From positions 1-64,000 of the IMG/VR virus record IMGVR_UViG_3300047469_000103: a stretch of 64,000 bases of DNA. One strand, 5' to 3'. Position 1 is the stretch's first letter. Each line of letters starts with the position of its first letter. Shown here one piece after another: positions 8,682 to 38,121 of the stretch. The position numbers and the translations under genes are program-made. The stretch comes from a virus (taxonomy: Duplodnaviria; Caudoviricetes). The notes beneath the pieces were generated by a model. The model saw only the letters and a list, made by a program, of their open reading frames with translations. It ran no database searches and was not told the DNA's origin.

Positions 8682-9417
8682 AATACCGTTAACGCGGAAC
8701 GAGCAGATTGAATTAATTGCAGGAAATACTCGTGTGGATAGCGGCGACGTTATCCCCACGCAGGATATTTTCTACGTCGATCATCAAGCGGTGCCCGACG
8801 GTGTTTTCTTTGCTGATCCAACGATACCGGGATGGCGCTATGCGGATAGCGTCACCATGTCGATTCCTGAGACGCGAACAGAATCACCGCGTCACGAAGG
8901 AATTAATTACTACGACGAAGTTGAAATGCCGCTGGGGATGAATGAGGTAGAAGTACCTGATTCCGAACTGGCGGAATTTAACGATACGTTGTCTGGAAAA
9001 ATCCCGGCGTTTAAAAAGTTGTTCTATTCCAGTGCGGCTACGCTTAGTGCGTTAGACGATGCAGCGGAATACGTGGAGGCTGCCCTTCGGGACGGCCTCG
9101 ACATTGACTTGGAAATGGACGGTGCGCTGCTTAGCGCATTCGTTCCAGTCTCACGGTTGGATGCGATTGCAACAATTGTGAAAAACACAAATTTGAGTCC
9201 GGCACTACAAGATGCCTACCTCATGAAAATGACTGAGCTTATTGCAGAAAAAACAATGGATGCCATGCAGAAACATGACATGGGCGTTGTTGCAAGAAGA
9301 CAAATCGAAGTATTACGGGAAGCAAATCATGCAAGAATTCGACCAGAAAAAGGCGGCACTCCGCTGCAACCTTCGCCCGCAACTTCACAGTGGGGCGTCA
9401 CAGGTACTCGACGATGA
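8656..9417 (+). CDS. Hypothetical protein, possible terminase small subunit
   Basis: Directly upstream of and overlapping TerL; start re-assigned to ATG 8656/8659; positional inference only. Confidence 0.4.
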   Translation: MMGHPPSPEIPLTRNEQIELIAGNTRVDSGDVIPTQDIFYVDHQAVPDGVFFADPTIPGWRYADSVTMSIPETRTESPRHEGINYYDEVEMPLGMNEVEVPDSELAEFNDTLSGKIPAFKKLFYSSAATLSALDDAAEYVEAALRDGLDIDLEMDGALLSAFVPVSRLDAIATIVKNTNLSPALQDAYLMKMTELIAEKTMDAMQKHDMGVVARRQIEVLREANHARIRPEKGGTPLQPSPATSQWGVTGTRR

Positions 9418-14087: not shown

Positions 14088-14678
14088 ATGCCGATACTTG
14101 CCAACGCGCTTATTGAAAGAATTGACGTAGATCGTGACCGTTATTTAGGTCTGATTAATCGCTGTAAATATGCCATCCTCATGAAAGAAGGTGACGATAC
14201 TTACCGCGCATACGAAACAAAAGACCCAAGCGTTCCGGGCCTTGAGGATTGCCGACTGCTGATTGTCACATTGAACGACAGGGATATTATTTATTCGTGT
14301 TATTTCAAAGTTGTCGAGCATCCGTTTTTCGGTAGTCGCGTTGTGCAAGTTGAAGTTCGATCAGATGAACCGGGAACAGCGCGGTTTGTGATGCAGAGAT
14401 TTTTCCTCAAGCATTACGGCGCGTTGCGTACCGACATTTCCCACACCCCAGCCGGGCGTAAAATGTGGGAAAGATTTATCGAAACAAATCAGTGCAATTT
14501 TTATATCGCTGATTTGCCGATTGACGCCAACACCGAACTGGGCAGGCGTAATCAAGATGCAAATAACGTAGAGCAGTTTTATCACCTACGACGATTAACC
14601 ACCGACGATGTTATCTGGCACGATAATCGACGCGGCAACGTGAGCGTAATCTACGCCACCAATGCGAGCATTTTATGA
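14088..14678 (+). CDS. Divergent GNAT-like protein
   Basis: PGTARFVM...LRTDISHTPAGRKMWERF parallels the 12296 ORF motif. Confidence 0.5.
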   Translation: MPILANALIERIDVDRDRYLGLINRCKYAILMKEGDDTYRAYETKDPSVPGLEDCRLLIVTLNDRDIIYSCYFKVVEHPFFGSRVVQVEVRSDEPGTARFVMQRFFLKHYGALRTDISHTPAGRKMWERFIETNQCNFYIADLPIDANTELGRRNQDANNVEQFYHLRRLTTDDVIWHDNRRGNVSVIYATNASIL

Positions 14679-22287: not shown

Positions 22288-22910
22288 CGGGGAAATTCAT
22301 TGTTCTTGAAAGTATCGAATGCGCCGGGAAGGGCACCGCTACAGATTACATGAAAGAGCATTTCACTCTAGCAAATGCAAAGGTGAAATACACACGGGAA
22401 ATCGGCGGTACGCCTTTCGCTGAGCGCATTCGCGAAATGATGCTGTCGTTAGACCCTGAATATGATTTGCCGCCAGCGTCGGATTTAATGATCGCGTATG
22501 GCGCACGAATTCAACACACAAAAAGCATGATTGTTCCGGCACTGGAAAGCGGCTACCACGTTTTCAGTGAACGCTACTACGCATCGACCTTGGCTTATCA
22601 AAGTCAGTACACGCCAGAAACTCAAGCGGTACACGATTTGATGATGCCGTATCTGCGCAAACCGAATATCACTCTGCTGTTGGATATCACGACAGAGACG
22701 ATGATGAAACGGATGTACGGAATTCGAAAAGCTTCTGGTATTGCACTCGACAAATTCGAAGTGAAATCTCAGGACTTTTTCGAAGGTGTGCGGAATGCCT
22801 ACCACAAACAAATTGACGATTCATGGGTAATCATTGACGCGGAGCGCAGCATTCCCGAAGTCAAAGAACAACTGTGTGCCGTCCTCAATAAATTTCTTGG
22901 GATTCCGTAA
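22284..22910 (+). CDS. tmk: Thymidylate kinase
   Basis: FIVLESIECAGKGT P-loop, TREIGGT, SERY..ST.AYQ, P..T.LLDI. Confidence 0.92.
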   Translation: MTGKFIVLESIECAGKGTATDYMKEHFTLANAKVKYTREIGGTPFAERIREMMLSLDPEYDLPPASDLMIAYGARIQHTKSMIVPALESGYHVFSERYYASTLAYQSQYTPETQAVHDLMMPYLRKPNITLLLDITTETMMKRMYGIRKASGIALDKFEVKSQDFFEGVRNAYHKQIDDSWVIIDAERSIPEVKEQLCAVLNKFLGIP

Positions 22911-23341
22911 TGAAAATCCAGATAGCCATTGCGAGCGCAGCACCGAAAAAGTTTGTACCGGCTGGCACGATTGTACGCCTGACAAAGAACCGCCCAACAT
23001 GGCGTGACCTTGGCCCGCGCCTGCTGAAAATTCCGATGCTGCAACGCGGTCATTTCGTTAGTGATTTGCCGGAAAACGATGATGGAATTATCGCCTACGC
23101 GCAGACCAATGCAATGACGCTGTTCTATGGCTATCGCATTCGTCTTGATGGCGAAAAAGATTTCATCGACAACCTGTTGATGTGCGTAGACGATAAAGGC
23201 CGCGTGGTAGAAGACGAAAAATATCGCCTGAATCATACGGCCTATTACGTCGGTGTGAAACTGCCAGACGCAGACATTAAATCACGGAAATATGCGAACA
23301 ACTTTGAACGCATGGATTACGTGTTACGGAATTTGGGGTGA
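22910..23341 (+). CDS. Hypothetical protein with MKIQIAIAS leader
   Basis: Coupled ORF; shared N-terminal leader. Confidence 0.7.
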   Translation: MKIQIAIASAAPKKFVPAGTIVRLTKNRPTWRDLGPRLLKIPMLQRGHFVSDLPENDDGIIAYAQTNAMTLFYGYRIRLDGEKDFIDNLLMCVDDKGRVVEDEKYRLNHTAYYVGVKLPDADIKSRKYANNFERMDYVLRNLG

Positions 23342-25017
23342 GTATGGAAATCAGTATTGCAGCCGCACCGGGGAGCGCTGACGCTCTGTTGAAACTTCTG
23401 ATCGCAATGTATCGCGCAGAGGATTTTAACTACGGTGAAAACTTCCTGAAGAAATTGCGTGCGTGGGAACCCGTCGCGCAACCGATGCTGGAACAGTTCG
23501 GCATTAAACGCGCATTCGCCCGTCCTATCGCCCTGCTGTTGGAAGGCGAAGACGTAAGCGATAACAAATACAATCACCTTGTCAAAGCGGCATTCGACAA
23601 GCTGAAAGAAAAGAAGAAAACATTCGAAAAAGATACCACGCTGAATAAAGTTCAACTCGGTATGTTCAACGATATTCGTCTGGCCTACAACGGATCGGAA
23701 AGCGCGGGCAAACGCCTGATGCAACACGCCGGTTACTTCAAAGACTCGCATATCTCGCAATTGTTTTTGCACGAAGGCGACGAAGTTGTAAGCGAAGTGC
23801 AGCAAGCGCTTTATGATCGACTGGGTGAACACGTTAAAACGCACGGCAAAGTAAAAGGCCACGTAATGCCTGACACTACGCTGACTGCGTGGCGTGACAA
23901 AGCAAAAGAAATCGGTTCGAATTTGCCGCAGCATCAAGAATATCTGGATATGCGCCGCCAACGGAAAGCCATTTACGACAAGGCAATTGCCAACATCGTT
24001 CGGGCGTCCGGCGAACACATTCTCGACGTGCAAGAAATCAAGCGTCAACTCGGTGATATTCAAAACGATATTCCAGATTGGTTTGTCGGCAAAATGGATG
24101 ACAAAGGGAACTTCTACACTGAAGCCGGTTTGCAGTTGCTGAATAAGCCGCTCGGTGAAGGCATGATGAACCCGAAATATAATCCTGCCGATGACAATTC
24201 CTACGTGTGTAAATACAAAGCACCGTTCGCGCAGAACTTCACCAGTGTGCAGACGATTGCCAACCGCACAGAAGGCCGCGTAGAAAGTTTTAGCATCATT
24301 CAAAACATGCTGCCGGACATTCAGAAATATGTGAAGAAATGGCTTCCTGATTTGGCGAAGGGGCCGGGTAGTTTGAAGGGCGCAGCCGCTGCTGTTTGCG
24401 AAGTGATTTATCAGACTTCCGCACGTATCGGTTCCACTCGGGCAAACACCGCTGGCGAAACCACTTACGGCATTTCTACACTGCTGCGCAAACACCTGAA
24501 TTTCAATGAACAACGCGTCATTATGAAATACATCGGGAAGAAAGGCGGCGCACAAAAGCACGTGATTAAATTCGAAGACCAGCGGACGATGATGCTGCAC
24601 TCTGCACTGGACGAATTCATTTACGAGAAAAAGCCAGCGGAATACGTGTTTACTTTCCGTGGTAAGCCATTGAGCAACAGCAATATCAACGGCTACCTGC
24701 GTGAACTCGGTTTCCCTGAAGGTTTCACCATTCACAAATTCCGCAAATTGCGCGGTACTGGAATGGCTAAGCTGCTGATGGACAAATGCCCTCACGGCCC
24801 GCGTGCAAAAGACGCAGTTGTTAACAAATGGATTGAAGACCAGTGCTTGAAAATCGGTAAAGAATTGGGCCACATGTCAGGCGAGAAAGTGACCGCAACC
24901 ACGGCCATCGCGAACTACATCGACCCATCGGTTTTCGCACCAGTTTTCGAGAAAACAAATACCCGTCCAAATAGCAAAATTCAGAAAGCTATGGACTTAG
25001 CTACGAAGGCGGAATAA
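23338..25017 (+). CDS. DNA topoisomerase IB (bacterial/poxvirus type)
   Basis: Catalytic pentad: SARIG (R), TYGISTLLRKH, YIGKKG (K), HKFRK (R), ELGH (H), ANYIDP (Y, nt 24916). Confidence 0.88.
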   Translation: MSMEISIAAAPGSADALLKLLIAMYRAEDFNYGENFLKKLRAWEPVAQPMLEQFGIKRAFARPIALLLEGEDVSDNKYNHLVKAAFDKLKEKKKTFEKDTTLNKVQLGMFNDIRLAYNGSESAGKRLMQHAGYFKDSHISQLFLHEGDEVVSEVQQALYDRLGEHVKTHGKVKGHVMPDTTLTAWRDKAKEIGSNLPQHQEYLDMRRQRKAIYDKAIANIVRASGEHILDVQEIKRQLGDIQNDIPDWFVGKMDDKGNFYTEAGLQLLNKPLGEGMMNPKYNPADDNSYVCKYKAPFAQNFTSVQTIANRTEGRVESFSIIQNMLPDIQKYVKKWLPDLAKGPGSLKGAAAAVCEVIYQTSARIGSTRANTAGETTYGISTLLRKHLNFNEQRVIMKYIGKKGGAQKHVIKFEDQRTMMLHSALDEFIYEKKPAEYVFTFRGKPLSNSNINGYLRELGFPEGFTIHKFRKLRGTGMAKLLMDKCPHGPRAKDAVVNKWIEDQCLKIGKELGHMSGEKVTATTAIANYIDPSVFAPVFEKTNTRPNSKIQKAMDLATKAE

Positions 25018-25020
25018 AAC

Positions 25021-25602
25021 ATGAAAGTAATGATTGCAGTTGCTTCGGAATATGTAGACGCACTTCCGAAGGGCGCCAAGATTAACAGCTTTGAAGTGTA
25101 CCGTTCCGGCACCAACAAAATGCTGGGCAAAGATAAAGCGGGCACGATGAAACAGATTGCAAAACGTCTGGATTACATACTGCCGGTTAACACGACTTTT
25201 GATTTGGTTGTGATTGCAGACCATGACGGCGCAACTCGCAAAGTCAAAGAATCCTACACGCTGAAATCTACCGGACTGGTTAAAGCACAAGTGGCAACAG
25301 CCGCCGCCAAACCTGCAAAGGTTAGCGCCAAAGTTGCACAGGTTATTACCTACGCAAAAAGCCAATATCCAATGAGTGGGCGCACGCCGACTTCGCTTTC
25401 GTTCACCAGTAAACAACGCGGTTTTATGGTCGAAGTTACCGACGCTGAAATCGTTGGTCGCGCATGGTACGAAGGCAACGACGACGCAATTAATCCCGAA
25501 TACAATATCAACGCCCCGACCGAACAAGGCTCGCTTGTGAAGCTTGCCAAATGGGTGAAATCCAGCAAGTCGGAAGCACCGCCATTCTCGGGGGCAAAAT
25601 GA
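25021..25602 (+). CDS. Hypothetical protein with MKVMIAVAS leader
   Basis: 193 aa ORF; shared leader. Confidence 0.7.
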   Translation: MKVMIAVASEYVDALPKGAKINSFEVYRSGTNKMLGKDKAGTMKQIAKRLDYILPVNTTFDLVVIADHDGATRKVKESYTLKSTGLVKAQVATAAAKPAKVSAKVAQVITYAKSQYPMSGRTPTSLSFTSKQRGFMVEVTDAEIVGRAWYEGNDDAINPEYNINAPTEQGSLVKLAKWVKSSKSEAPPFSGAK

Positions 25603-25775
25603 TTAAAGTATTCAACGTATCAGCGCTACACGAACGCTACGCCAACGAAACCGACGAAGAAAAAACCGCTCGTTATGCTGCGAATAAAAAGCGCATTACC
25701 GACATGGTTGAAGCGTGGGACAAGTTCGCGAAAGAGCATCCAGAAGCCGCTAAACAAATGAGGTGCGCAGCATAA
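25599..25775 (+). CDS. Small hypothetical protein
   Basis: Start re-assigned to ATG 25599 overlapping upstream stop. Confidence 0.55.
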   Translation: MIKVFNVSALHERYANETDEEKTARYAANKKRITDMVEAWDKFAKEHPEAAKQMRCAA

Positions 25776-26233
25776 TGGAAATCAAATTGATGACCGCAAC
25801 CGCCGCTGATTATCCAAGTCGTTACGCCCTCGGTTCGCTGGTGTATTTCCATCCCGGCATTCAGGGCATGACCGATGCTGAAGGTATCACGCACGGTTTG
25901 CTGGCGCGTATTGATCGCGTAAGTTTCGAGGAAGGTAAAGTAACCTACGACCTCGCAATGAACATTTCGAACAGCACAGAACTTCCACATTTTTACGACG
26001 CAATTCTGGTCGCAAGTGTGGACAGTATTTTCGTGGCTTCTTTTGACGATCTGGTTATGTGGACTGCGCAGCGTGCAAAAAGCGTAGAAGCATTAATCGG
26101 TGCAATTGAAGAACCGCAACTCGTAACGATGGCTACGGCATCCGGTGCGCTGACAATTGACGACGCCGAACGCATTACCCGTCGTTTTATCGCAATCGCC
26201 GCAGACGTGGCCGAACAGAAGGCAGCCGCGTAA
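25775..26233 (+). CDS. Hypothetical protein with MEIKLMTATA leader
   Basis: Start re-assigned to ATG 25775 (TAATG coupling). Confidence 0.7.
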   Translation: MEIKLMTATAADYPSRYALGSLVYFHPGIQGMTDAEGITHGLLARIDRVSFEEGKVTYDLAMNISNSTELPHFYDAILVASVDSIFVASFDDLVMWTAQRAKSVEALIGAIEEPQLVTMATASGALTIDDAERITRRFIAIAADVAEQKAAA

Positions 26234-27147
26234 TGGAACTGCAATTAGCCGTAGCAAAAGATTTCGGTAGTGTTTTTCACGGTACATCGTTTATCAACAT
26301 GGCCGCGATTATCAAGACCGACAAACTGCAACTGTCGCAAGTCGCCGGTAAAGAAGCAGAAGCCGCATTCGCAAAACATCCGTTCTTTTTGAGCGTGCGC
26401 CGTAACCGTGTGTTGACTGCGCAAAACTTCTACGACGTGACAATCGAATTCAAAGAACAATCCCTGCAATCGCGGATGAAACGTGAGTCAGTGGATTACT
26501 GGGGCCACGTCGAAGGCAAGGGTAACAGCATCGAACAGGAAGACCGCTATTACAGCGCTAAACCTGTGCTGCAAAAAGCCACAAAATTGATTCGTGCAAT
26601 TCACGTTGACCTGTCGAACTATGACGCCGAACGTCGCGGCAAAATGATGCGTGAAATGTTCGTGTCGGCAATGCGCCAAGGTGTGAAGGTTTATCTGTAC
26701 AAAGATAAGTCGGCATACGGCAATTTGAACGTGCGTAAAACCGTGCCGCTTTCTGATATGGAATACGGCGGTAAAGTGCAGAATCTTTTCCGCACGCGCA
26801 CCGCTGAAGAAGCCACGCAAGAAGGCGAAGACCAGATGTACAAGGGCATGCGTTATGCTCGCTCGGTTTACCCGGACATTAAATTCTTTGTCGATATTCT
26901 GTACGGCAATACTCCGCCAGTAAACGACAAAACGAAATACCTGCGTGAGCGTTATGGCTACCGCTACGGCGAACACGATTTGACTACGCAATTCCAGAAC
27001 GAATTGCATAACGCCTCGCACAGCCACGGCCCGAAAGATAAACAGTTGGCCGCTCGCCTGCAAACGTGGATGCGTGACAACAAAATGGATATCAAAGAAA
27101 CAGCTTATCGCGTGCGTGAAAACATTCGGAAAGCTGACGGGGAATAA
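26233..27147 (+). CDS. ADP-ribosyltransferase-like protein (paralogue 1)
   Basis: FHGT ... FFLSVRR ... DYW ... EQEDR spaced like ART H/R-S-E motifs. Confidence 0.6.
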   Translation: MELQLAVAKDFGSVFHGTSFINMAAIIKTDKLQLSQVAGKEAEAAFAKHPFFLSVRRNRVLTAQNFYDVTIEFKEQSLQSRMKRESVDYWGHVEGKGNSIEQEDRYYSAKPVLQKATKLIRAIHVDLSNYDAERRGKMMREMFVSAMRQGVKVYLYKDKSAYGNLNVRKTVPLSDMEYGGKVQNLFRTRTAEEATQEGEDQMYKGMRYARSVYPDIKFFVDILYGNTPPVNDKTKYLRERYGYRYGEHDLTTQFQNELHNASHSHGPKDKQLAARLQTWMRDNKMDIKETAYRVRENIRKADGE

Positions 27148-27148
27148 C

Positions 27149-28072
27149 ATGCAAATTCAACTGGCCCTTGCCGGATCGTCGGTTCTGTACCATTTGATCC
27201 CGATGGAATACGCGATCCCTGCACTGCAAAAAGATCGTTTTAAATTGGCTGCTACCAACGAAGGCGTAGAGTCTGAATTCGGTAAGCAGCAGTTCTTTCT
27301 GAGTCTGGCGCGTTCGAAACAAAGCCATTACTTCACGAATGAAATCAACGTGACCAGCGTTGTGTTCGTGTTGGACGGCGTAAAGATGGGCCAGAATTAC
27401 CAGATTAAACCAGTGGATTACTGGGCCAGTCAGCAGCACGTGACCAGCGATGAAATGGAAGACCGTTTGTTTGCCGACAAACTGTATATCCCTTGCGTGA
27501 AATACGTGAAGGAAATCCATTTCATGACTGAGCGCGAAGCCAAATGGAAATCGAACGATAGCCTGACGCTGGCGCTGCTTGCCAAACGGAATGGCATCGA
27601 GCTTTATCAATACGATGACATGAAAGACTTCGCGAAGCTGGATAAGCGCAAGAAAATCAAACTGGAAGTCAGCGATAAAAAGAAACCGAAATTCGGTGCG
27701 AAGAAAGGATTTAATCCCGGCCCCGATGGCGACCTGCAAGCGTGGTACGTTGCATCGCAAATCGTCTTCAAACCAAATGAGGATTTCGGTACGCAATTCG
27801 TTAAAGGCGCAAAGCATAAAGAAGAGCGCAAAGCCCGTGACCGTATTCGTCGGCAGATTAACCAACTGAATCGCACGTGGGAAGTCGGCAGCCAAGCGGT
27901 ACGGGATTTCAATCGTCTGCTAGGTTATGCAAAAGACGGCGAAGACCTTCAATTCCTTGAGAAAATTAAACGTGTAAAACGCAAACAGCGCGTCGATACC
28001 AAAGGCTTTCTGGATTATGTTCGGAAGCGTTGGATGACTGCTGAAGACCGCGTGAATCACGGACTGGAGTAA
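27149..28072 (+). CDS. ADP-ribosyltransferase-like protein (paralogue 2)
   Basis: LYH ... FFLSLAR ... VVFVLDG ... PVDYW ... EMEDR; start re-assigned to ATG 27149. Confidence 0.6.
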   Translation: MQIQLALAGSSVLYHLIPMEYAIPALQKDRFKLAATNEGVESEFGKQQFFLSLARSKQSHYFTNEINVTSVVFVLDGVKMGQNYQIKPVDYWASQQHVTSDEMEDRLFADKLYIPCVKYVKEIHFMTEREAKWKSNDSLTLALLAKRNGIELYQYDDMKDFAKLDKRKKIKLEVSDKKKPKFGAKKGFNPGPDGDLQAWYVASQIVFKPNEDFGTQFVKGAKHKEERKARDRIRRQINQLNRTWEVGSQAVRDFNRLLGYAKDGEDLQFLEKIKRVKRKQRVDTKGFLDYVRKRWMTAEDRVNHGLE

Positions 28073-28074
28073 CC

Positions 28075-29976
28075 ATGAGAATTCAGATAGCCCTTGCGTC
28101 GGTGCCGCTTAGCATTGCACGAAAGTATGTAAAAAACTGGAACAAAAATGGCATCGGTGTAAAGGCTGTCCGCCAGTTCATGAAGCCGCCGAAGAAAGGG
28201 TATCGGTTTTACATTCCGATCAAGCCTAAAAAATCTGCAAAAATTGTACCGCCGTCGAATATCGTCAGCACCTTGGATTCCCTCGGTTATAAAATTGATG
28301 ATTACGTGAGCGGTATTGCAGTTGACCGCACAGGCAATCGTCGCATGCGGATTGGTAAACTTCTCAAGGATGATTCGCTGCGTCAGGAATTCGCAAACGA
28401 TCCACAACGCAGTGCGCACAAAGACGAATATGTCTGCGTGCTTTCTTCACATCCTTATGACGTAATCGGTATGTCTACCGGGCGCCGTTGGGATATGACT
28501 TCCTGTATGCGTCTGGATCAACCGGGCAAAACACAGGGCGGTGTGTACAAAGAAAAAGTTGCAAAAGACGTGGCGGAAGGGACAATTGTTGCCTACGCCA
28601 TTTCGCCAAAAGACACGAACATCGCAAACCCACATGCACGGCTTTTAATTAAACCGTTTTACAAAACCACTGGCGGGAACCGGACGCAGAATAGAAAAGT
28701 TGTTCTATTCCGTGTTGAAACGAAAGTCTACGGCACACCAATTCCCGGCTTTATGGAAACCGTGAGCGCGTGGCTACGCAAGGTCAACAGCAAGGCCGAG
28801 GCGGGTGTTTATACGATTGCGCCTGAGCTTTATGACGACGGCGTTGGTCAGCTTGCAATTCACGCGGACTTTAACAAGACGCCCGATGATGAAAGGTTTA
28901 AATACCTGAATGAAAACCGGGAACAAATCCCCCTAATTGTTAAATCCGATATACGTTGGTTGGGTGTTGCCTTCCAGCATATGTCGCAACTGTATTACAA
29001 CGCGAATAACCCCGGCACTCAGGCAGCGAACCTGCTAGACCTGATGAACAAAGTTAAAACGCTGGGTTCAACGGTTAAAGAAATTGGACAACAAGTCGAG
29101 AAATTCTTACCGGACGCCGATCTTCCGTGGCTTGCTAAAATGCTGCCTCAAGATGCCATGCAGCCTATTGCTGATTATTCTGCGCGCCTGACAAAAGCCA
29201 CTGACGCGGAATACGCATACGATCCAGAATCCCCACTTATGTCGTCGTCAGAAATCCTGACAAAACGTGCGTACTGGGATGCTCGCTGGTTGGCGAAAAT
29301 GGATGATCTTACGGATGAATACGCGGCAGGAAATACATTCCTTTCGTTCATTCGCAGTCGCCTAACGGACACACCGGAATTCCGAAAGTCTAAAGCTCCC
29401 GGCTCAATTAAAATGCGTGAATATCTCGGTATGATGTTCCGCATTGCTGCCAAGTCTTCGAACGACGAAGAGACTGGCGTGAAACTGTCGCGCAAACTGG
29501 CGCCACGATTCAAGGTTGATACCTATTTCAATCCGACAATTGAAAAATTGATGGGGCGCATTTGGGAACATCGAATGAAACGTGCTACCGGTCGTGCTGA
29601 TGGGGAAACCGCCTCCGGTCTGTTGTGCGCTGTAGACAGAACGTGGCCTGCACAAAACGTTGAATTAATTGCAGACAGTGGCAATGTAGTTCTGCGCCAA
29701 GAAGTATTCGAAGACCTGCTGAAAATCAATACCGAATATGCAAACTGGGAAATCGCCACACGTATTCGCGAAGAACTCGCCGCATCGAACCTAACGCAGA
29801 CCTCGTGGAATATGCGCTACCCGTGGATGCTGCCGTTTATTAAATCGGTTGCTCGTGGCCCATACCCGCCGCGCTTGATGCAGTGGGCGCAGGACTTTAT
29901 CGCCCATATTGAAAAAGTCTCAAAAGAAATGGATGACATTTTCAAAGAACTCGGCCTCGACGAAGACGGAAATTAA
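28075..29976 (+). CDS. Large protein, HPYD/SCMRL family paralogue 1
   Basis: SHPYDVIGMSTGRRWDMTSCMRL, DVAEGTIVAYAI; MRIQIALAS leader. Confidence 0.8.
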   Translation: MRIQIALASVPLSIARKYVKNWNKNGIGVKAVRQFMKPPKKGYRFYIPIKPKKSAKIVPPSNIVSTLDSLGYKIDDYVSGIAVDRTGNRRMRIGKLLKDDSLRQEFANDPQRSAHKDEYVCVLSSHPYDVIGMSTGRRWDMTSCMRLDQPGKTQGGVYKEKVAKDVAEGTIVAYAISPKDTNIANPHARLLIKPFYKTTGGNRTQNRKVVLFRVETKVYGTPIPGFMETVSAWLRKVNSKAEAGVYTIAPELYDDGVGQLAIHADFNKTPDDERFKYLNENREQIPLIVKSDIRWLGVAFQHMSQLYYNANNPGTQAANLLDLMNKVKTLGSTVKEIGQQVEKFLPDADLPWLAKMLPQDAMQPIADYSARLTKATDAEYAYDPESPLMSSSEILTKRAYWDARWLAKMDDLTDEYAAGNTFLSFIRSRLTDTPEFRKSKAPGSIKMREYLGMMFRIAAKSSNDEETGVKLSRKLAPRFKVDTYFNPTIEKLMGRIWEHRMKRATGRADGETASGLLCAVDRTWPAQNVELIADSGNVVLRQEVFEDLLKINTEYANWEIATRIREELAASNLTQTSWNMRYPWMLPFIKSVARGPYPPRLMQWAQDFIAHIEKVSKEMDDIFKELGLDEDGN

Positions 29977-29978
29977 TC

Positions 29979-30221
29979 ATGCAAATTGAATTGGCTACAG
30001 CAGCGGCCACGACTGTCAAAGCGTCCGACGTAAAAGACACCGTGAAGTTGATCGAAGCTGCAATTAAAAAACAACGAATGTTTCTCGTGCAAAGCGGTGG
30101 CGAACAAAACCCGCAAGTCGTGACCGAACGTCTGCGTGTGCAGGAACGTGTTGATATGTTGGAAGCGATTCTGGATTCCATGAAAGGTAAACACATTGCC
30201 TTGAGGATTTACGCTCAATGA
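29979..30221 (+). CDS. Small helical protein with MQIELATAA leader
   Basis: 80 aa coupled ORF. Confidence 0.7.
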   Translation: MQIELATAAATTVKASDVKDTVKLIEAAIKKQRMFLVQSGGEQNPQVVTERLRVQERVDMLEAILDSMKGKHIALRIYAQ

Positions 30222-33019
30222 ATATTGAAATGGCAGTCGCCGCCGTCTCGATGAAAACGGCACTGAAATATCGCCGTGACTGGAATAAAAACAGTCCGGC
30301 TGTAAAAGCTTTGCAAAAGATGCTGCCTGTTGGCCCCGGCAAGAAAGGTTATCGCCTGTACATTCCAATCGGCGCACAGATTAAACATCGTTTTATCATT
30401 CCGCCAGCCGTGCGTTTCGCGCTGAAGAAGAATGGCTTTGTTGCCACCGATTACCTCGCAAAGAAATGTGTTAAGCTTGACGACAAAGACCAGAAGAACG
30501 TATTTAACATCGGCAAAGTAATTGCCAAAGATGTTCATGCGAAAATGGCTTTCGACAACGACCCGCAATTGCAGAACACCGCTAGCGGCGCGCATTTACA
30601 AGTGGTTATTTCCTGCCACCCTTACGATATTATCGGCATGTCCACCGGGCGTTCGTGGGATAAACAATCCTGCATGCGTCTCGACGATGGCGTGGTAAAC
30701 CGTGGGGATAAAGGCGCATACAGTCGCCACGTGAAAAACGACGTAGCTGAAGGGACATTGGTTGCGTATGCAATTGATCCAAACGACACGAATATTAACA
30801 AGCCGAAATGCCGCTGCCTGATTAAACCTTTCGTGAATAGCGAAGGTGAGGTTTTGTATCGTCGTGAATCGGATGTTTACGGCAACCCGGTTCCCGGTTT
30901 TAATTCGACGGTGAACGCATTTCTACGCAAGCTAAATGCTGATGCGGAATCCGGCCATTACGAAATGAGCGGCGATCTTTACGACGACGGCGCTGGTACG
31001 GATCACCATCACGTAAAAAGTGATAGCAACCGCATCACAAACGACGACGTAGGCGACGATCATTCGTTGGCTGTTGATTTCGTTAAGCAGGAAATGGAAA
31101 TCATCAAAGCTGGTGAAGAGGACGAAACAACGAACCTCGGAAATATCAGCGGCGCACGAAACAACGCGAATAATATCGCACATATGCTGAATGATTTAAC
31201 CAGTAACGAAATGACTGTTCAACTGGATGAAATTGCCGACCTCGTGCGCGGTAGTGAATTCATTGGGCAGTATGTGAACGATCTTGTTCTACATGGGAAA
31301 AAGATTAACTCTGCGTTGGCCTACGTGGCACGCAAAGCCGGTCTGCTGGACAAGCGTAAAGAAATAAACTTTCCAGAAACAATGGATGTGAAACTGGCAA
31401 TTACGCAAGCGCGTTCCGGCAACCCTGCTGCAATGGAAGTCGTGCTGCGTAATCTGGACGACGAAGAAAACCCCGGCGATCATCACGCACAAATTCTCGC
31501 AGACCTGATGTACGGCGTGTTGCCAGTTCCTGAAAAGGAAATGTTGGATAAATACCCGTTTGCTCGTTCGTTTATCCACACGACCGCTTCGGCTGCGCGC
31601 TTCCTGAATCTGTTTAGCTACGAACGTTTCCACGAAGCGGCTTTCGCCCTTCTGGAAATCACCGAAGGCTCGGAAAAAATGCGTGGCGATTATGTCATGT
31701 ACACGCTGCGTGAAGTGCAAGGTTTGGAATTGGTTCTGTGCTATCTGTTGGATAACGTAGGATTTCTTTCGGCGGATGAATGGTTCCTGTTCCGCACTAA
31801 CGAAATGGCTGAGCATTTGATTGGCCGACGCAACTTCCGCGCTTTCGATAAGCTAACAGATAATCAAGCGCAGATGTTTATGGAACACATTAAAATCGAC
31901 ATGATGCGCCTCATTGTCACACAGCCGTATCGAGCCGACGCATTCAAAGACAACTTCCCTGCAATTCGCGCGTTCTTTCTGGAACATCCAGAAAACATTA
32001 ACAGCATTATCGAGGGCCGTGGCACGCAACAATGGGATATTGCGTGTGTCACAAACCTGATTAAATTCTCGGTGCCGATGTTCCTGCAATTGAACGGTGA
32101 AGGTTCTGCGTTCAATGCTTCGATGGTCACTGCGATGATGAATGCAATCGCCCCGTATTTGCTGGATTACAACGGCGCAGACAAGATCGGTGACGACGAC
32201 AAAACCGAAGTCGCCAGTACGCAAATGGAATTCATTATGCAGGCGTTGCAAGTCGCCGGTAAAATGCTGGATAAACCTGTTGATTTCACAAAGCATATTG
32301 ATTTCGAACCGGTTGATCTGAAAGCTGTGTCTGCCAAGTTTAAAAACCTTGCAGGCGGCGACCGCAACGGTGCCTATATGACTTTCTCCGGTGTGTTGTC
32401 CGGTCTGGAAATCAACGGGCAGTCGATCAACATTGCACAAGAAATGGAATTGATTGTCGCGGAAGCGCCAGCCTCGTTCTATGCAATGCCGCGTGAAACA
32501 CTGGCAAACCATCACCGGACGATCATTAAAGAACTCGCTAAAATGTCGTCGATGGATACGCTTCTGAAATCCGCAGAAAACATTCTCGATAATACGGAAA
32601 TGGTTGAAACGGAAGACGAAGACAGCTACGTCAACGATAACAGCGACATGGGTGATGCTTACCCGGACGATGACGACTACGACGAACTGTTGGAAGCAGC
32701 ACAAGATAAAGCCCGCGATAAAGTCGAACGTTTGAATCAAGCAACAGTGGAAACAAACACGAAATGTTTGCGTGCTTTGGAAATGCTGCAAATGCTTATC
32801 GGTGAAGACGAAGAGGAAGATGAAGACGACGAAGACGAAGACGAAGATGGTGAAGTGAAATCGAAGCCGCTTGAATTCGGTTATCAGACTCCACAATTCA
32901 CCCCGGAAATCTTTGAAGAATATTCGTCTGATATCCTTGAACTGCGTGAGCGGATTAAAGAAGCATTGGCACAACGCTCGGAAGAAGCGGAAGAATACCG
33001 TGACGCTGCCGGGTATTAA
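30218..33019 (+). CDS. Large protein, HPYD/SCMRL family paralogue 2, acidic C-terminus
   Basis: CHPYDIIGMSTGRSWDKQSCMRL, DVAEGTLVAYAI; MNIEMAVAA leader. Confidence 0.8.
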   Translation: MNIEMAVAAVSMKTALKYRRDWNKNSPAVKALQKMLPVGPGKKGYRLYIPIGAQIKHRFIIPPAVRFALKKNGFVATDYLAKKCVKLDDKDQKNVFNIGKVIAKDVHAKMAFDNDPQLQNTASGAHLQVVISCHPYDIIGMSTGRSWDKQSCMRLDDGVVNRGDKGAYSRHVKNDVAEGTLVAYAIDPNDTNINKPKCRCLIKPFVNSEGEVLYRRESDVYGNPVPGFNSTVNAFLRKLNADAESGHYEMSGDLYDDGAGTDHHHVKSDSNRITNDDVGDDHSLAVDFVKQEMEIIKAGEEDETTNLGNISGARNNANNIAHMLNDLTSNEMTVQLDEIADLVRGSEFIGQYVNDLVLHGKKINSALAYVARKAGLLDKRKEINFPETMDVKLAITQARSGNPAAMEVVLRNLDDEENPGDHHAQILADLMYGVLPVPEKEMLDKYPFARSFIHTTASAARFLNLFSYERFHEAAFALLEITEGSEKMRGDYVMYTLREVQGLELVLCYLLDNVGFLSADEWFLFRTNEMAEHLIGRRNFRAFDKLTDNQAQMFMEHIKIDMMRLIVTQPYRADAFKDNFPAIRAFFLEHPENINSIIEGRGTQQWDIACVTNLIKFSVPMFLQLNGEGSAFNASMVTAMMNAIAPYLLDYNGADKIGDDDKTEVASTQMEFIMQALQVAGKMLDKPVDFTKHIDFEPVDLKAVSAKFKNLAGGDRNGAYMTFSGVLSGLEINGQSINIAQEMELIVAEAPASFYAMPRETLANHHRTIIKELAKMSSMDTLLKSAENILDNTEMVETEDEDSYVNDNSDMGDAYPDDDDYDELLEAAQDKARDKVERLNQATVETNTKCLRALEMLQMLIGEDEEEDEDDEDEDEDGEVKSKPLEFGYQTPQFTPEIFEEYSSDILELRERIKEALAQRSEEAEEYRDAAGY

Positions 33020-33023
33020 TAAG

Positions 33024-33039
33024 TAATTTAAAGGTATGA
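33024..33039 (+). promoter_or_regulatory. Motif A TAATTTAAAGGTATGA
   Basis: Identical 16-mer to 18864 copy, intergenic. Confidence 0.6.
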
Positions 33040-33041
33040 CT

Positions 33042-33072
33042 AAGCCGGGTGCTGTTTGCCCGGCTTTCTTTT
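33042..33072 (+). terminator. Intrinsic terminator-like hairpin
   Basis: AAGCCGGG-tgctgtttg-CCCGGCTT plus TCTTTT. Confidence 0.7.
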
Positions 33073-33093
33073 GCCGAATTATGGATAATTATT

Positions 33094-35808
33094 ATGATTC
33101 CTGTGCAGGTTTCCGAAGAGTTTGGGTTTTTGGGCGTTGCAGCGGTATCCCTCCGCTCGACTTTGAAATACCGCCGTAACTGGAATAAAAATGGGCCGAC
33201 CGTTAAACTGCTGCGCAAATTAATGCCGCGTGGTTCGAAAGGTTATCGCGTTTATATGCCAATCGGTGTCAGCCAGAATATGCGCAACGTGATTGTTCCG
33301 TTGCCGGTTCGTTTGGCTGTGAAACAAGCAGGCTTTCGGATTACCGATTACCTCGCCAAGAAGTGCGTAAAAATCTCCGATAAAGAACAGAAAAACGAAT
33401 TCAATATCGGTAAGGTTATCGCGAAAGACCCGGTTGCAAAGGCCGCTTTCGACAATGATCCACAATTGCAAAACAGTTCCACTGCCGAATTCCAATTGGT
33501 TGTTTCGTGCCACCCTTACGACATTATCGGTATGAGTACCGGTCGTAGTTGGGACAACGAAAGCTGCATGCGTCTGCGTGACTACCGACCTGATTCAAAT
33601 GATGGTTCGAATAATCATTATTTGGAAGTCGATATTGCAGAAGGCACATTGGTTGCTTATGCCATTCGTGCGTCTGATACCAACATCGAAAAACCGCTGG
33701 GCCGCTGCCTGTTGAAACCGTTCGTGAGTGAAACCGGCGGTGACGATATTCTGTATCGCCGTGAAACAAAGATTTACGGCAATCCGGTTCCGGGTATGCC
33801 AGAAACACTTAACCGTTTTCTGCGCAAATTAAACGCGGATATTCCAGCGGGCCAATACAAGTTGCACAAAGGTTTGTATAACGACGGCATTCAATACCGT
33901 CACAATCGTGAAGAGTCGGAAGGCGAACGCGATACCGACCAGATTGACTGGACTGTTGTTGACGACGAAGCAACGCTGAAAGAAAAGCCGCATTTGTTTG
34001 CATCGTTGGTCGCTCATTTCCTGAAGAACTACAAAGCCGGTTTGACTGACATTCGTCATTTCATTTCCGTGCTGTTTCACGCATCGAATATGGTGCCTGC
34101 TAAATATCTGCGCCAAGCTGCACGACTGCTTTGCACTGACGATATTGCAAAAGGTTTTATGCAGTTTGTTACTGAAGGCGACGAAGACCAGAACACCATT
34201 CTGGCTGGTTACTATTTGCGTAACCCGGAATTCCGCCGCCTGTGTGCGCAGCATATTCCAGAAGGCGTGGACGCTGCCTATTCCCGCGTGCTGAGTTTCG
34301 TTAGTCCGAAATTCGATGCTGCAATTCTGAAAGGTATTCCAAACAATGTGGATGCTCACATTCTTTCGGCGTATCAAATTCTGACTGGCATGATGCAACT
34401 GAGTCCGAAGAGCATTGAATCGCGACCAGACCTGCACCGAATTATTTATCTGTTCGCCCGTCTGGCCCGTGACGCTTCGATTTTCGATATGCGTGCGTAT
34501 CAGGAACCAGCGCATCAAATTCTGGCAACATCTACTGTCAACAAAGAAGAAATTCCGTTGGTAGAAGTTGTTAAAGTTGCCGAGTTTTTGGTCGGTGAAC
34601 CTGACACGATGCTGATGGCCGCAACGTGGATGCTGGAATACATGAAGACCGGCGATTTTAAACGCGCCGAAGTCGTTGCCGCGTATATCTCTCCGCACGG
34701 TTTTGAAGACCTGTTGAAAGAACGGAAATTGCGTCGTCGTTTCTTGGGCGGTAAAGGCATTCCAGAAAGCACAATGAAACAAATCAACATTGCTGTTTGT
34801 GCATTGCTGGATAATAACCAAGACGAAGACACGGCAACCACTCGTGATTTGCTCGCGCACATTGCGAAGACGCCATTCAACGCCGTTAACGTCAGTTCCT
34901 ATAACCGTTTGGTAAATGCTCACCCTGAGACTTTCCCGAATGTTTACTACACTGATGCCAACACGATGGATCGTTACACAATTAACGAAATGGTTTACTA
35001 CGTGCCGTCGTATGAAGTCAGTATTAACATTCGTGATGGCGAGCCACTTCCGGCACCGGTAAACGAATGGCAAGCGCGCACGTGGGAAATTGCAGGCACG
35101 TTAATGCACGTTAGCGCCCTCGCGACAAAGAGCGCACAGGAAGCTTTGCCTGTGTCGGAAACCGTGATGGAAATTCTTGAAAAAGAAGGCGGCGATATTC
35201 CACAACTGGCGCGTATGGAAATCGACATTAAAAAGCATCCGCGACTGTTCAACGGAAACACGGTCAAGTACATGATGCCGTTTGATTTTATCGGCAACGA
35301 TAACGGCGAAGCATTCATGGAACGCAGCACACGCGGCGACATTGATAACTTTGTAAAAATCATGGAAACCGTTTTCGAGAACGCCGGTAAAATGGGCATT
35401 TACATGCCGTACACCGACCCGAACTATACCCGCGTGCCTAGCGACGTGATGTTTATTACGGTGGTTAGTAATGTTGCTAAAAACGAAACCCCGGACAAGG
35501 CACAAGCGCTGTTGAATTCGTGCCTTAAATACATTCGAACATATCAGGCGTTTATCGACACACTGCCAGCCATCGGCCCCGGCTTTGTAGATCGTTGGGT
35601 TGAAAAACTCTCGATGTATTCTGCAAAAGAAGTGAACGATTGGAGTATCCACATTGCAGGCTTCCAAAAGAAAATGTTGGACGATCCTAAAACGCTGATT
35701 GCCGGTATCAAACTGCTGACGTATATGTGCAGTATGAAAGGCGGGAATAAAGGATGGCAACTCGACATTTCCGATGTGCCTGCTGATTGGCAAATGAACG
35801 ACGACTAA
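33094..35808 (+). CDS. Large protein, HPYD/SCMRL family paralogue 3
   Basis: CHPYDIIGMSTGRSWDNESCMRL, DIAEGTLVAYAI; start re-assigned to ATG 33094. Confidence 0.8.
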   Translation: MIPVQVSEEFGFLGVAAVSLRSTLKYRRNWNKNGPTVKLLRKLMPRGSKGYRVYMPIGVSQNMRNVIVPLPVRLAVKQAGFRITDYLAKKCVKISDKEQKNEFNIGKVIAKDPVAKAAFDNDPQLQNSSTAEFQLVVSCHPYDIIGMSTGRSWDNESCMRLRDYRPDSNDGSNNHYLEVDIAEGTLVAYAIRASDTNIEKPLGRCLLKPFVSETGGDDILYRRETKIYGNPVPGMPETLNRFLRKLNADIPAGQYKLHKGLYNDGIQYRHNREESEGERDTDQIDWTVVDDEATLKEKPHLFASLVAHFLKNYKAGLTDIRHFISVLFHASNMVPAKYLRQAARLLCTDDIAKGFMQFVTEGDEDQNTILAGYYLRNPEFRRLCAQHIPEGVDAAYSRVLSFVSPKFDAAILKGIPNNVDAHILSAYQILTGMMQLSPKSIESRPDLHRIIYLFARLARDASIFDMRAYQEPAHQILATSTVNKEEIPLVEVVKVAEFLVGEPDTMLMAATWMLEYMKTGDFKRAEVVAAYISPHGFEDLLKERKLRRRFLGGKGIPESTMKQINIAVCALLDNNQDEDTATTRDLLAHIAKTPFNAVNVSSYNRLVNAHPETFPNVYYTDANTMDRYTINEMVYYVPSYEVSINIRDGEPLPAPVNEWQARTWEIAGTLMHVSALATKSAQEALPVSETVMEILEKEGGDIPQLARMEIDIKKHPRLFNGNTVKYMMPFDFIGNDNGEAFMERSTRGDIDNFVKIMETVFENAGKMGIYMPYTDPNYTRVPSDVMFITVVSNVAKNETPDKAQALLNSCLKYIRTYQAFIDTLPAIGPGFVDRWVEKLSMYSAKEVNDWSIHIAGFQKKMLDDPKTLIAGIKLLTYMCSMKGGNKGWQLDISDVPADWQMNDD

Positions 35809-35821
35809 TCGGTGACAATAA

Positions 35822-36046
35822 GTGAAAATAATTCTGTCGTTGGCTAAATCGGGAAGTCCCGACCGTTGGGACGCCTTGCCCTATATCAGTTTCGACAACG
35901 CGAAAGAAGGCAAGCGCCTGACAGCTAAAGGCAAAAAAGGTAAAAAGAAAGGGCGTAAAAAGAAAGCTGATGGCCTTCTCGATACGCCCCTTAAAGGTGC
36001 GGAAACCGTTATCTCAAACGTACCCGACCGCGTTAGATTTTCTTGA
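35822..36046 (+). CDS. Small Lys-rich protein with MKIILSLAKS leader
   Basis: GTG start; KGKKGKKKGRKKK tract. Confidence 0.6.
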   Translation: MKIILSLAKSGSPDRWDALPYISFDNAKEGKRLTAKGKKGKKKGRKKKADGLLDTPLKGAETVISNVPDRVRFS

Positions 36047-36053
36047 GGTTCAC

Positions 36054-36314
36054 ATGGCAAAACTGTCGATTAATCTACAGGGCAGAGCGGCACGTGGAAC
36101 AGACAGCACGGAACACGGCGGCACGCGCCTTTCCACATGGGAAGACGACGATAAACTGGCCGGGAACCTGCCGAAATCCAAAGTGAAAACTTTGCTCAAA
36201 AACCAGAAGAACGTACAAAACCAAAGCGCTGTTATGCCTCACGATTACGTGGACAAAATGCACATTTCGAAATCGAATTGGCTGAGTCGGCATGAACAGA
36301 GTACGCCGCGATGA
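36054..36314 (+). CDS. Small hypothetical protein
   Basis: Start re-assigned to ATG 36054 after GAGG. Confidence 0.65.
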   Translation: MAKLSINLQGRAARGTDSTEHGGTRLSTWEDDDKLAGNLPKSKVKTLLKNQKNVQNQSAVMPHDYVDKMHISKSNWLSRHEQSTPR

Positions 36315-36973
36315 AAATACGAATTAACCTTGATGTGTTCAAGGACTTACCGACTGACGTGCGCAAGCTTAGCAATTCGCAAGGTGCTGAATTCGGTGAC
36401 GTATTGGCCGACCTTGCAAAGCGTGGTTTACATCGCCACGGAAAAGCTCGCGACCATTTTGAAGTGGAAGAAGACGAACGCGATGCCGCTGTTTATCCAG
36501 ACGATGGATTTAATGGTGACGCATTCGACGTTGTGTATTCACGCCGCGACGAAGAACAATCAACGGCCTGCAATTTCTGCTTGTCGATTGCAGGTTTTGA
36601 AAAGCCACGCGTAAAAGGAATTGGTGAAGACGGTTTCCGCGCAATTCTCAATGAAGAGCGCGCACGCCGGGGCTTAGAGGCATTTGCTGCTGATAAAGTA
36701 CCGCCACCATCGAAAGCCGAACACGCAAAACACCGGGCGAAAGTGGACAACAGCGCACAGATTAAAAAAGCTCAAGATAACAAGATGAAAAAGCAGGCCA
36801 GTCTTCAGGCTATGCAGACGCGTCTTCGCAAAATGAGCAAGCGTCCAACCAATCCCGAACAAGCGAAAGTGTGGGCGGATCGCCGTCAAGCTTTGATGGA
36901 TAAAATCAAGGAACAACGCGACTCTATTCGGTTCACTGATTCGCGCATTGCGAAAATGAGGTCAACCGAATGA
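36311..36973 (+). CDS. Hypothetical protein with basic coiled-coil C-terminus
   Basis: 220 aa coupled ORF; MKIRINL start. Confidence 0.7.
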   Translation: MKIRINLDVFKDLPTDVRKLSNSQGAEFGDVLADLAKRGLHRHGKARDHFEVEEDERDAAVYPDDGFNGDAFDVVYSRRDEEQSTACNFCLSIAGFEKPRVKGIGEDGFRAILNEERARRGLEAFAADKVPPPSKAEHAKHRAKVDNSAQIKKAQDNKMKKQASLQAMQTRLRKMSKRPTNPEQAKVWADRRQALMDKIKEQRDSIRFTDSRIAKMRSTE

Positions 36974-37350
36974 ATATTGCTATCAGGATTTCGCCGTCGG
37001 GTTTGGAATACAGCACGTTGTCGAACCTTGGCAATATGCTGAAAGAATTCATGCCCGATTGGGACGTGACGTATGCGTCGTGCATGGTGCCTTACGAATT
37101 GCGTAGTTTCTTTTTGGAAGGCCGCACATTTGTACGCGCCACGTACACAATGAAAAAGTACGACAAAGCGCTTTTCATTCACGTGGATTTCAAGACTCCA
37201 ATTGAAATCTATATCATTCATCAAATAGGTTTGGAAAATATTGCTCGGCGCGTCTACACCATTGATCGCTCCGACAGCCTTGCGTTGTTCCGCATAATTA
37301 CTTCCGAACTGGAGAACACTATCAATGGCGACTTCAAGAACATCGAGTAA
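36970..37350 (+). CDS. Hypothetical protein
   Basis: 126 aa coupled ORF; MNIAIRIS start. Confidence 0.65.
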   Translation: MNIAIRISPSGLEYSTLSNLGNMLKEFMPDWDVTYASCMVPYELRSFFLEGRTFVRATYTMKKYDKALFIHVDFKTPIEIYIIHQIGLENIARRVYTIDRSDSLALFRIITSELENTINGDFKNIE

Positions 37351-37798
37351 ACCGAGAAAGCCTCGGAAAACAAAACCGAAATCTGCAATCAAGAAAACGG
37401 TCAAGAAGTCGGGCGCCAAGAAAGCTAAAGTGAGTCCGGTAGCATCGCGGGCACGCAAGCTTGGCTTGGAAAGTATGGGTTATGGTCGATGGGGAAAGAT
37501 GGGGCGAATTACGCACCGGACTGTCGGCGGTAAATTGGAAGCTGTGAAAGACAGCAAACTGAATCGGGTTAAAACCCGTGAAGGGAAGGCGAAAGCCACA
37601 AGCATTCTGTCGAAAATGGCGAACGAACATACGCAGAAACTTGTGAAAATTCGTATGGCTATTAAGAAAGCAGAAGGCCGAGGTGATGACGATAAAGTCA
37701 AGCAACTCAAGCAGATGCTGGAACGTAGCCAGAAAGAAATGCAGAAAGCAAAAGAGCGTTTGGTTGCACTCAATGCTCGCAAGAAAAAAGCAGCATAA
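37325..37798 (+). CDS. Highly basic, histone-like protein
   Basis: K/R-rich N-terminus, LGLESMGYGRWG..GRITH motif, basic coiled coil. Confidence 0.7.
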   Translation: MATSRTSSKPRKPRKTKPKSAIKKTVKKSGAKKAKVSPVASRARKLGLESMGYGRWGKMGRITHRTVGGKLEAVKDSKLNRVKTREGKAKATSILSKMANEHTQKLVKIRMAIKKAEGRGDDDKVKQLKQMLERSQKEMQKAKERLVALNARKKKAA

Positions 37799-37838
37799 AA
37801 AAAAGGCCCATTTCCGTAATTGGATTTGGGCCTTTTTT
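37797..37838. terminator. Bidirectional intrinsic terminator
   Basis: AAAAAAAAGGCCCA...TGGGCCTTTTTT between convergent gene blocks. Confidence 0.85.
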
Positions 37839-37842
37839 CGTT

Positions 37843-38121
37843 TCATACACCCGGACGCCAAGCATCCAGATTAATGTGTCGCTCGTATCCGCGATAACCA
37901 TCACGCGCATGCACGTAGACATGGGCCACCAACAACGTCAGCGGGAAATTGTGTTCGCCCGTAATAAACGTGTGGCGCTTCCAGTCAACGAAACGGTCAA
38001 TTTCAAACATGCGATCAAATACAAATTGTTCGCCGCGAAATGTAACCGTCTCGTTTGCCAACATGCGCAGGAAATCATCACGAAAAGAACCGTCAGGATT
38101 TACCACAGTCAGCAGGCGCAT
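37843..38121 (-). CDS. Hypothetical protein
   Basis: Start re-assigned to ATG 38121 overlapping DHFR stop. Confidence 0.6.
   Translation of the reverse strand: MRLLTVVNPDGSFRDDFLRMLANETVTFRGEQFVFDRMFEIDRFVDWKRHTFITGEHNFPLTLLVAHVYVHARDGYRGYERHINLDAWRPGV

Follow-up and report, generated by a model that had tools for sequence, protein, structure and literature searches.

Polyvalent proteins are predicted to be packaged into the capsid and injected, and the phage versions typically have a GNAT (GCN5-related N-acetyltransferase) domain beside an ADP-ribosyltransferase (ART) domain (Iyer et al. 2017, PMC5512222). In the head cargo of phage T4, which includes the ADP-ribosyltransferase Alt and IPI-III, a short N-terminal peptide, the capsid targeting sequence, is common to unrelated proteins. 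PcfJ (PF14284), found in pCF10 and in many Herelleviridae phages, has conserved His-Asp and His-Cys motifs, after which comes a beta meander. Here we describe three large genes, paralogues 1 to 3, at positions 28,075 to 35,808 of a 64,000-nucleotide stretch of viral DNA (Duplodnaviria; Caudoviricetes), which is positions 1 to 64,000 of IMG/VR record IMGVR_UViG_3300047469_000103 and is called the window below. All three belong to one large jumbo-phage family, as paralogues of ancient origin, and are joined by a basic N-terminal domain (N-domain) of about 260 amino acids (aa) with a predicted alpha/beta fold. The domain family is unnamed and uncharacterised, yet it fits known kinds: phage head cargo, modules of polyvalent proteins and the GNAT-like fold.

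A preliminary description of this region had reported three plus-strand open reading frames (ORFs) of 633, 933 and about 904 aa that share a conserved domain, and all three are present. Paralogue 1 (28075..29976, + strand) encodes 633 aa, of which residues 1-262 (nt 28075-28860) are the N-domain and residues ~271-625 a predicted alpha-solenoid. Paralogue 2 (30218..33019, + strand) encodes 933 aa, with the N-domain at residues 1-262 (nt 30218-31003) and a long acidic C-terminus; paralogue 3 (33094..35808, + strand) encodes 904 aa from the ATG at 33094, and its N-domain ends at about nt 33888. Over their first ~260 aa the three proteins are 39-62% identical, and more than 90 alignment columns are invariant, which is far beyond chance. 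Every motif quoted in the preliminary description was found in all three proteins, namely KY..(N/D)WNKN, IGK...D...F.NDPQ, HPYD.IGMSTGR.W...SCMRL, D.AEGT.VAYAI...DTNI..P..R.L.KPF and E..[VI]YG.P.PG. The three N-domains are basic, with an isoelectric point (pI) of 9.2-9.9, and the tails are acidic (pI 4.5-5.7).

Conservation was analyzed in 68 diverse N-domains of the family at ~35% identity, with residues numbered as in paralogue 2. Sixteen residues were invariant: R46, Y79, S132, H134, P135, D137, R145, W147, C152, Y184, D190, P196, R199, Y221, G222 and N240. Judged from the alignment, this set is polar and of a catalytic type. The core motif lies at 28444..28506 (+) in paralogue 1, where it reads S124-S-H-P-Y-D-VIGMSTG-R-R-W-DMT-S-C144 and where its S, H, P, D, R, W and C are the residues invariant in 68/68 aligned members. 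It lies at 30611..30673 (+) in paralogue 2 (S132-C-H-P-Y-D-...-R-S-W-...-S-C152) and at 33505..33567 (+) in paralogue 3 (S-C-H-P-Y-D-...-R-S-W-...-S-C). We predict that R46, S132-x-H134-P-x-D137, R145-x-W147, S151-C152, Y184, D190, R199, K203, Y221-G222 and N240 make up a catalytic or cofactor-binding site, with Cys152, together with His134 and Asp137, as its likely reactive centre.

Several known motif arrangements were compared with this site and dropped. The L,D-transpeptidase YkuD (H...S-x-G-C-[IV]-R) was set aside since the Arg after the Cys is not conserved and YkuD came up neither in Pfam nor in the fold searches. Cysteine peptidases of clans CE and CD, which have the order His-Asp-Cys, misfit in their spacings and found no fold support, and the H-C-R of sortases likewise found none. 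For the R-S-E ADP-ribosyltransferases, the Glu is not conserved and fold support was again lacking.

Structure prediction with AlphaFold2, followed by Foldseek as the preliminary description had suggested, gave confident models both for the N-domain of paralogue 2 (predicted local distance difference test, pLDDT, 89.4; predicted template-modelling score, pTM, 0.77) and for full-length paralogue 1 (pLDDT 92.8, pTM 0.82). Foldseek of the N-domain model against the PDB yielded no significant match. Even so, each of the 50 best matches was of the GNAT superfold, whether the search was made by Foldseek, by the independent method VIA-align over 48,161 chains or as a second-look alignment. The likeness spans model residues ~126-261, equivalent to GNAT beta1 to beta5, and the C-terminal arm is missing; a complete GNAT fold continues with alpha4 and beta6. 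Over this stretch the predicted core looks like a GNAT acyltransferase cut off after its first two-thirds. It superposes on the beta1-alpha1-alpha2-beta2-beta3-beta4-alpha3-beta5 elements of yeast HAT1 (1bob), NatD/Naa40, AAC(3), SSAT and TacT3, and the S-x-H-P-x-D...R-x-W...S-C stretch maps to beta1, alpha1 and the long alpha1-alpha2 loop of the model. Before the helix equivalent to alpha3, where GNATs bind the pyrophosphate of coenzyme A (CoA), the family has a conserved Gly loop. This loop reads V-Y-G-x-P-x-P-G-F, in which Y221 and G222 are invariant and F228 nearly so, whereas motif A of GNATs in the beta4-alpha3 loop is Q/R-x-x-G-x-G/A. Because GNAT coverage is partial and the loop is not the canonical CoA motif, we call the domain core GNAT-like and not a GNAT. 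The Acetyltransf_* profiles of Pfam matched neither the three proteins (E<=1) nor the 68 N-domains (E<=10), and NCBIfam gave none.

The long helical C-terminal region noted earlier was also seen in the model of paralogue 1, in which residues 271-625 are all-alpha and form stacked helical hairpins with pLDDT >90. The best PDB matches of this solenoid were importin-alpha and karyopherins, and they were weak (Foldseek E 0.04-0.2). Many relatives have Pfam repeats in the same position, whereas no Pfam repeat model (HEAT, ARM, LRV or DUF4116) matches the three window proteins.

The family distribution was obtained by a profile search of 1.84 billion representative proteins, an analysis also foreseen in the preliminary description. 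The search recovered 2,431 clusters (at 50% identity), almost all of them viral, with 463 at E<=1e-30. Family proteins range from 244 to 1,844 aa, the domain is nearly always N-terminal, and the C-termini of relatives are diverse, often bearing DUF4116, HEAT or LRV repeats, or none. All named members bear the label "hypothetical". On several contigs two or three paralogues occur together. At least 215 copies of the domain were found in IMG/VR, many on contigs of 130-540 kb. A pattern-limited scan of 185,579 species genomes found three loci only, all in metagenome-assembled genomes (MAGs). We also observed a partial match (35% identity, residues 91-203) at 367424-379714 of OY970150.1, a 1.87-Mb alphaproteobacterial MAG chromosome, which could reflect a prophage or a remnant, or an error of assembly. 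The N-domain had no meaningful match in Pfam, PHROGs, NCBIfam, PADLOC or PDB sequences (two profiles), and the accession numbers of six homologues did not occur in the searchable literature.

Two published virion proteomes contain members of the family. In the Ralstonia jumbo phage RsoM2USA, ORF132 (76.64 kDa) is among the ten most abundant virion bands, visible with Coomassie and identified by liquid chromatography-tandem mass spectrometry (PMC8504454). We found that RsoM2USA_132, with a computed mass of 76.62 kDa, is a family member (35% identity, E 2e-33). In the Agrobacterium phage Atu_ph07, the virion protein gp394 was listed with "no significant homology", 55.10 kDa, 18 unique peptides and 41% coverage (PMC6102473 Table S5). 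Since accession order is unusable there (gp341 is absent), gp numbers were assigned by exact molecular-weight matches. By this means gp394 was identified as the family member AUZ95153.1, computed at 55.10 kDa, and its upstream neighbour matches gp393 (11.30 kDa). Both RsoM2USA_132 and AUZ95153.1 carry the full SRHPYDIAGMSTxRGWTSCM motif. The papers on Lu11/PaBG and on Dickeya JA hold no virion data on the family, and we found no proteome of a Lu11-like phage. Taken together, these data make virion association of the family fairly secure, and from it we infer that the three window proteins are packaged as well.

In metagenomic relatives the domain also occurs in 1,700-1,850-aa fusions of the polyvalent type, with ART-PolyVal and ParB_N. 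In P0052 (1,844 aa), ART-PolyVal (E 2.8e-20) precedes a tandem array of three to four domain copies. P0285 combines the domain with ParB_N, and P0004 contains it three times together with DUF4116. The motif is kept in all domain copies of these three proteins. P0052 adjoins a classical polyvalent protein with ART-PolyVal, GNAT and ddrB-ParB (ENA ERZ1292635, a 46.8-kb contig). Both neighbours are ~1,830 aa long and start with ART-PolyVal, after which they differ, as if they carried alternative payloads. The window proteins differ from polyvalent proteins in that each has one conserved domain and a solenoid, not two or more effector domains, and the domain lies outside the Pfam families derived from Iyer et al. 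2017, as it has no Pfam match.

We reasoned that the three proteins are virion-packaged and probably injected, that the N-domain is catalytic or binds a ligand or cofactor through a Cys/His centre, and that the solenoid is an adaptor; we consider this reading about evenly balanced against all others together. Family proteins form part of the virion, and most likely they enter the host together with the DNA. The acidic, fast-diverging ARM/HEAT-like solenoid would choose the partner, either a host target or a capsid component, and such a role would explain the retention of three versions. Injection and the role of the solenoid are both steps that we infer. Catalysis by the N-domain, for which conservation, fold neighbours and fusion partners argue, seems to us close to an even call. 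If it is an enzyme, group transfer onto a host macromolecule, or cleavage of one, would be the most likely chemistry, with acyl transfer as one candidate. The preliminary description had proposed an unassigned enzyme domain, possibly one for Cys-dependent acyl transfer. That interpretation is partly supported: acyl transfer specifically is plausible but unproven, and in our view a minority possibility.

The main rival is that the proteins are purely structural internal head proteins, inner-body-like or DNA-organising. The basic N-domain would then bind a component of the capsid or the packaged DNA, with the acidic solenoid as spacer or scaffold and the invariant residues serving folding, assembly or DNA contact and not catalysis. 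The abundance of relatives in two virions, one as a Coomassie-visible band and the other with 18 peptides, suits such a protein, as do the strongly basic N-domains joined to acidic C-termini, and no membership of an enzymatic family can be demonstrated. However, a scaffold would not typically keep sixteen residues invariant, mostly S, H, D, R, C, Y and N, among sequences at ~35% identity. The domain is moreover reused in tandem in polyvalent proteins beside the enzymes ART-PolyVal and ParB_N, and its fold neighbours are all enzymes. We therefore regard a purely structural role as somewhat unlikely.

A bolder form of the injected-enzyme reading is that the domain is a GNAT-derived Cys/His enzyme, not recognised before, that forms a covalent intermediate on Cys152 and transfers an acyl or other group onto host proteins, tRNA or DNA. 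It would be loaded into capsids in high copy in hundreds of jumbo phages and injected so that the host is taken over or disarmed, with the diversifying solenoids aiming one chemistry at different host targets. We hold this version to be speculative and, as a whole, unlikely. If it is true, T4 Alt would be joined by a new class of enzymes that are injected and modify the host. Jumbo phages have many abundant virion proteins without a known role, and this family bears one of the clearest catalytic-looking signatures among them. An injected enzyme would bring a new chemistry to the few phage proteins that enter the host along with the DNA. Cys152, His134 and Asp137 would then offer a handle on early host takeover or counter-defence in jumbo phages that do not form a nucleus. 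If the proteins are instead structural, they would be an internal component of wide occurrence, and their conserved polar site would still call for an explanation. On either reading the family deserves a definition.

We also considered whether the N-domain is a distant branch of PcfJ with a cytoplasmic role, either acting on incoming DNA or countering host defence, and is not virion cargo. The two share some features: PcfJ likewise has conserved His and Cys motifs ahead of beta strands and occurs in phages and mobile elements. PcfJ clusters were the nearest named neighbours by shape (template-modelling score, TM, 0.36 query/0.52 target) and by language-model features (score 0.88), both atlas scores being below the reliability thresholds of the tools. 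For profile comparison, pCF10 PcfJ and eight phage PcfJ domains served as the comparison set. Against an 11-sequence PcfJ alignment, hhalign gave a probability of 0.5% with E 0.12, which is likewise below the reliability threshold, although the register of the 170 aligned columns is plausible. Against a single PcfJ sequence no significant match was obtained. The PF14284 hidden Markov model (HMM) had no match in the genomes of Lu11, HRDY3, Atu_ph07, RsoM2USA and Yoloswag (E<=1) or in the 68 family members (E<=10), and a word-index search from pCF10 PcfJ returned near-identical fragments only. The PcfJ domain, in contrast to the N-domain, is C-terminal and ~147 aa long, with a motif spacing unlike that of the family. 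In pCF10 (35873-37983), PcfJ is directly beside a gene annotated as a Cas9 inhibitor of the AcrIIA9 family (PcfK-like), which would suit an anti-defence role; the PcfK-PcfJ pair recurs in Polaribacter and Bacteroides phages. A purely cytoplasmic role is contradicted by the virion proteomics of the two relatives. Kinship with PcfJ is thus a lead only, and this alternative as a whole appears quite improbable.

The C-termini had been described as unrelated, and indeed BLASTP revealed no similarity among the three. Profile comparison of orthologue alignments by hhalign gave a different picture for one pair: the tails of paralogues 2 and 3 are remote homologues along their full length, 571 columns being aligned with a probability of 98.2% and E 2.8e-14. 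For paralogues 1 and 2 the result is ambiguous (21%, E 1e-3), and for paralogues 1 and 3 nothing was found. Among metagenomic Lu11-like phages the orthologues form a separate set for each paralogue; those of paralogue 1 are P0021, P0032, P0034, P0037 and P0038, and those of paralogue 2 are P0005, P0009 and P0023. The tails diverge much faster than the N-domain, as P0002 and P0009 are 34% identical in the C-terminus vs. 72% in the N-domain. Because two of the tails are homologous, the orthologue sets are separate and the C-termini evolve faster, the sequences indicate that the three genes are old whole-gene duplicates with fast-diverging tails, rather than one domain joined to exchangeable cassettes. 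The C-terminus of paralogue 2 has a pI of 4.5 and a net charge of -66, with poly-Asp/Glu tracts such as EDEEEDEDDEDEDEDGE at residues ~800-910 (window ~32600-32950). This acidic tail could act in DNA mimicry or as a counter-ion within the capsid.

The preliminary description had put forward a polymorphic-effector architecture, with the enzyme domain joined to variable targeting domains. Such a system would shuffle a single enzyme domain among C-terminal targeting cassettes that are unrelated and interchangeable, and it draws on the diversity of family C-termini (DUF4116, HEAT, LRV or none), the contigs with two or three paralogues and the BLAST result. It is nevertheless very unlikely. Tails 2 and 3 are homologous, and it is the putative enzyme that is conserved here, the opposite of polymorphic toxins, which conserve the trafficking part. 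No paralogue is followed by an immunity-like gene, and no small partner gene comes after them consistently. Each paralogue has collinear orthologues in other Lu11-like phages, including Lu11_0207-0209, so that the pattern is explained by divergence and not by an exchange of cassettes.

Paralogues 1 and 2 open with the peptide M-x-I-x-[IM]-A-[LV]-A, which reads MRIQIALA in paralogue 1 (28075..28098, +) and MNIEMAVA in paralogue 2 (30218..30241, +). In paralogue 3 the leader is broken by an insert (MIPVQVSEEFGFLGVAAV). The same peptide motif heads unrelated neighbouring ORFs. In six frames of the whole window, the strict pattern M-x-[IVLM]-x-[IVLM]-[AST]-[IVLMT]-A had seven matches, all at the starts of + strand ORFs (22910, 25021, 26233, 27149, 28075, 29979 and 30218), and looser versions were found at 23344, 25775 and 35822. 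The ORFs that share the leader, which in its general form is M-x-[IVLM]-x-[IVLM]-A-x-A, are mostly unrelated to one another. Because their codons and upstream DNA differ, the leader is conserved at the peptide level only. In this respect the leader recalls the targeting peptide of T4 head cargo, and it differs from the T4 peptide in sequence. As with T4, relatives of the window proteins are found in virions, and an enzyme-like cargo would presumably be delivered with the DNA; the family domain itself is unrelated to ARTs, in contrast to Alt. The distant virion-borne relatives lack this leader, and therefore the virion association of the family predates it. We conclude from the sequence pattern that the 8-residue leader is probably a lineage-specific head-loading tag in the Lu11 lineage.

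A type IB topoisomerase of the eukaryotic/poxvirus-like kind (23338-25017, +; Pfam Topoisom_I E 2.7e-12; phrog_23460) bears the leader variant MSMEISIAAA and, given this variant, may also be virion cargo. Two further leader-bearing ORFs of ~305 aa (26233-27147 and 27149-28072, +) are paralogues of each other (24% identity/180 aa, E 1e-10). This pair has no Pfam or PHROG match, so that the cassette holds a second unnamed family that has been duplicated. An 80-aa ORF outside the N-domain family (29979..30221, +), lying between paralogues 1 and 2, starts with MQIELATA; Lu11 has only a 55-bp gap in its place.

The window comes from a jumbo phage of roughly 300 kb, a relative of Pseudomonas phage Lu11, and an identical protein is found on a record from a 300-kb contig. 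The window further codes for a large terminase (9390-12296), a portal (14675-16603), baseplate and tail genes, dTMP kinase, dihydrofolate reductase and thymidylate synthase. Lu11_0207-0209 are the same three paralogues in the same order, and HRDY3 has two of them, all annotated as hypothetical. The 7.7-kb paralogue region had no megablast match among phage records, and no conserved gene neighbourhood around family members was found in Atu_ph07, RsoM2USA, Yoloswag and one 304-kb metagenomic phage.

Between paralogues 2 and 3 lies a terminator-like hairpin (33042..33066, +) with a 10-bp stem, six G-C pairs and a T-rich tail. Paralogue 3 could start at the GTG at 33049, giving 919 aa, or at the ATG at 33094, giving 904 aa. 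On the sequence evidence the ATG is most likely the start, because the upstream GTG is inside the hairpin and orthologues begin at the equivalent Met. The hairpin is the strongest terminator-like site within 22500-38000, which suggests a transcript boundary or attenuation within the paralogue array.

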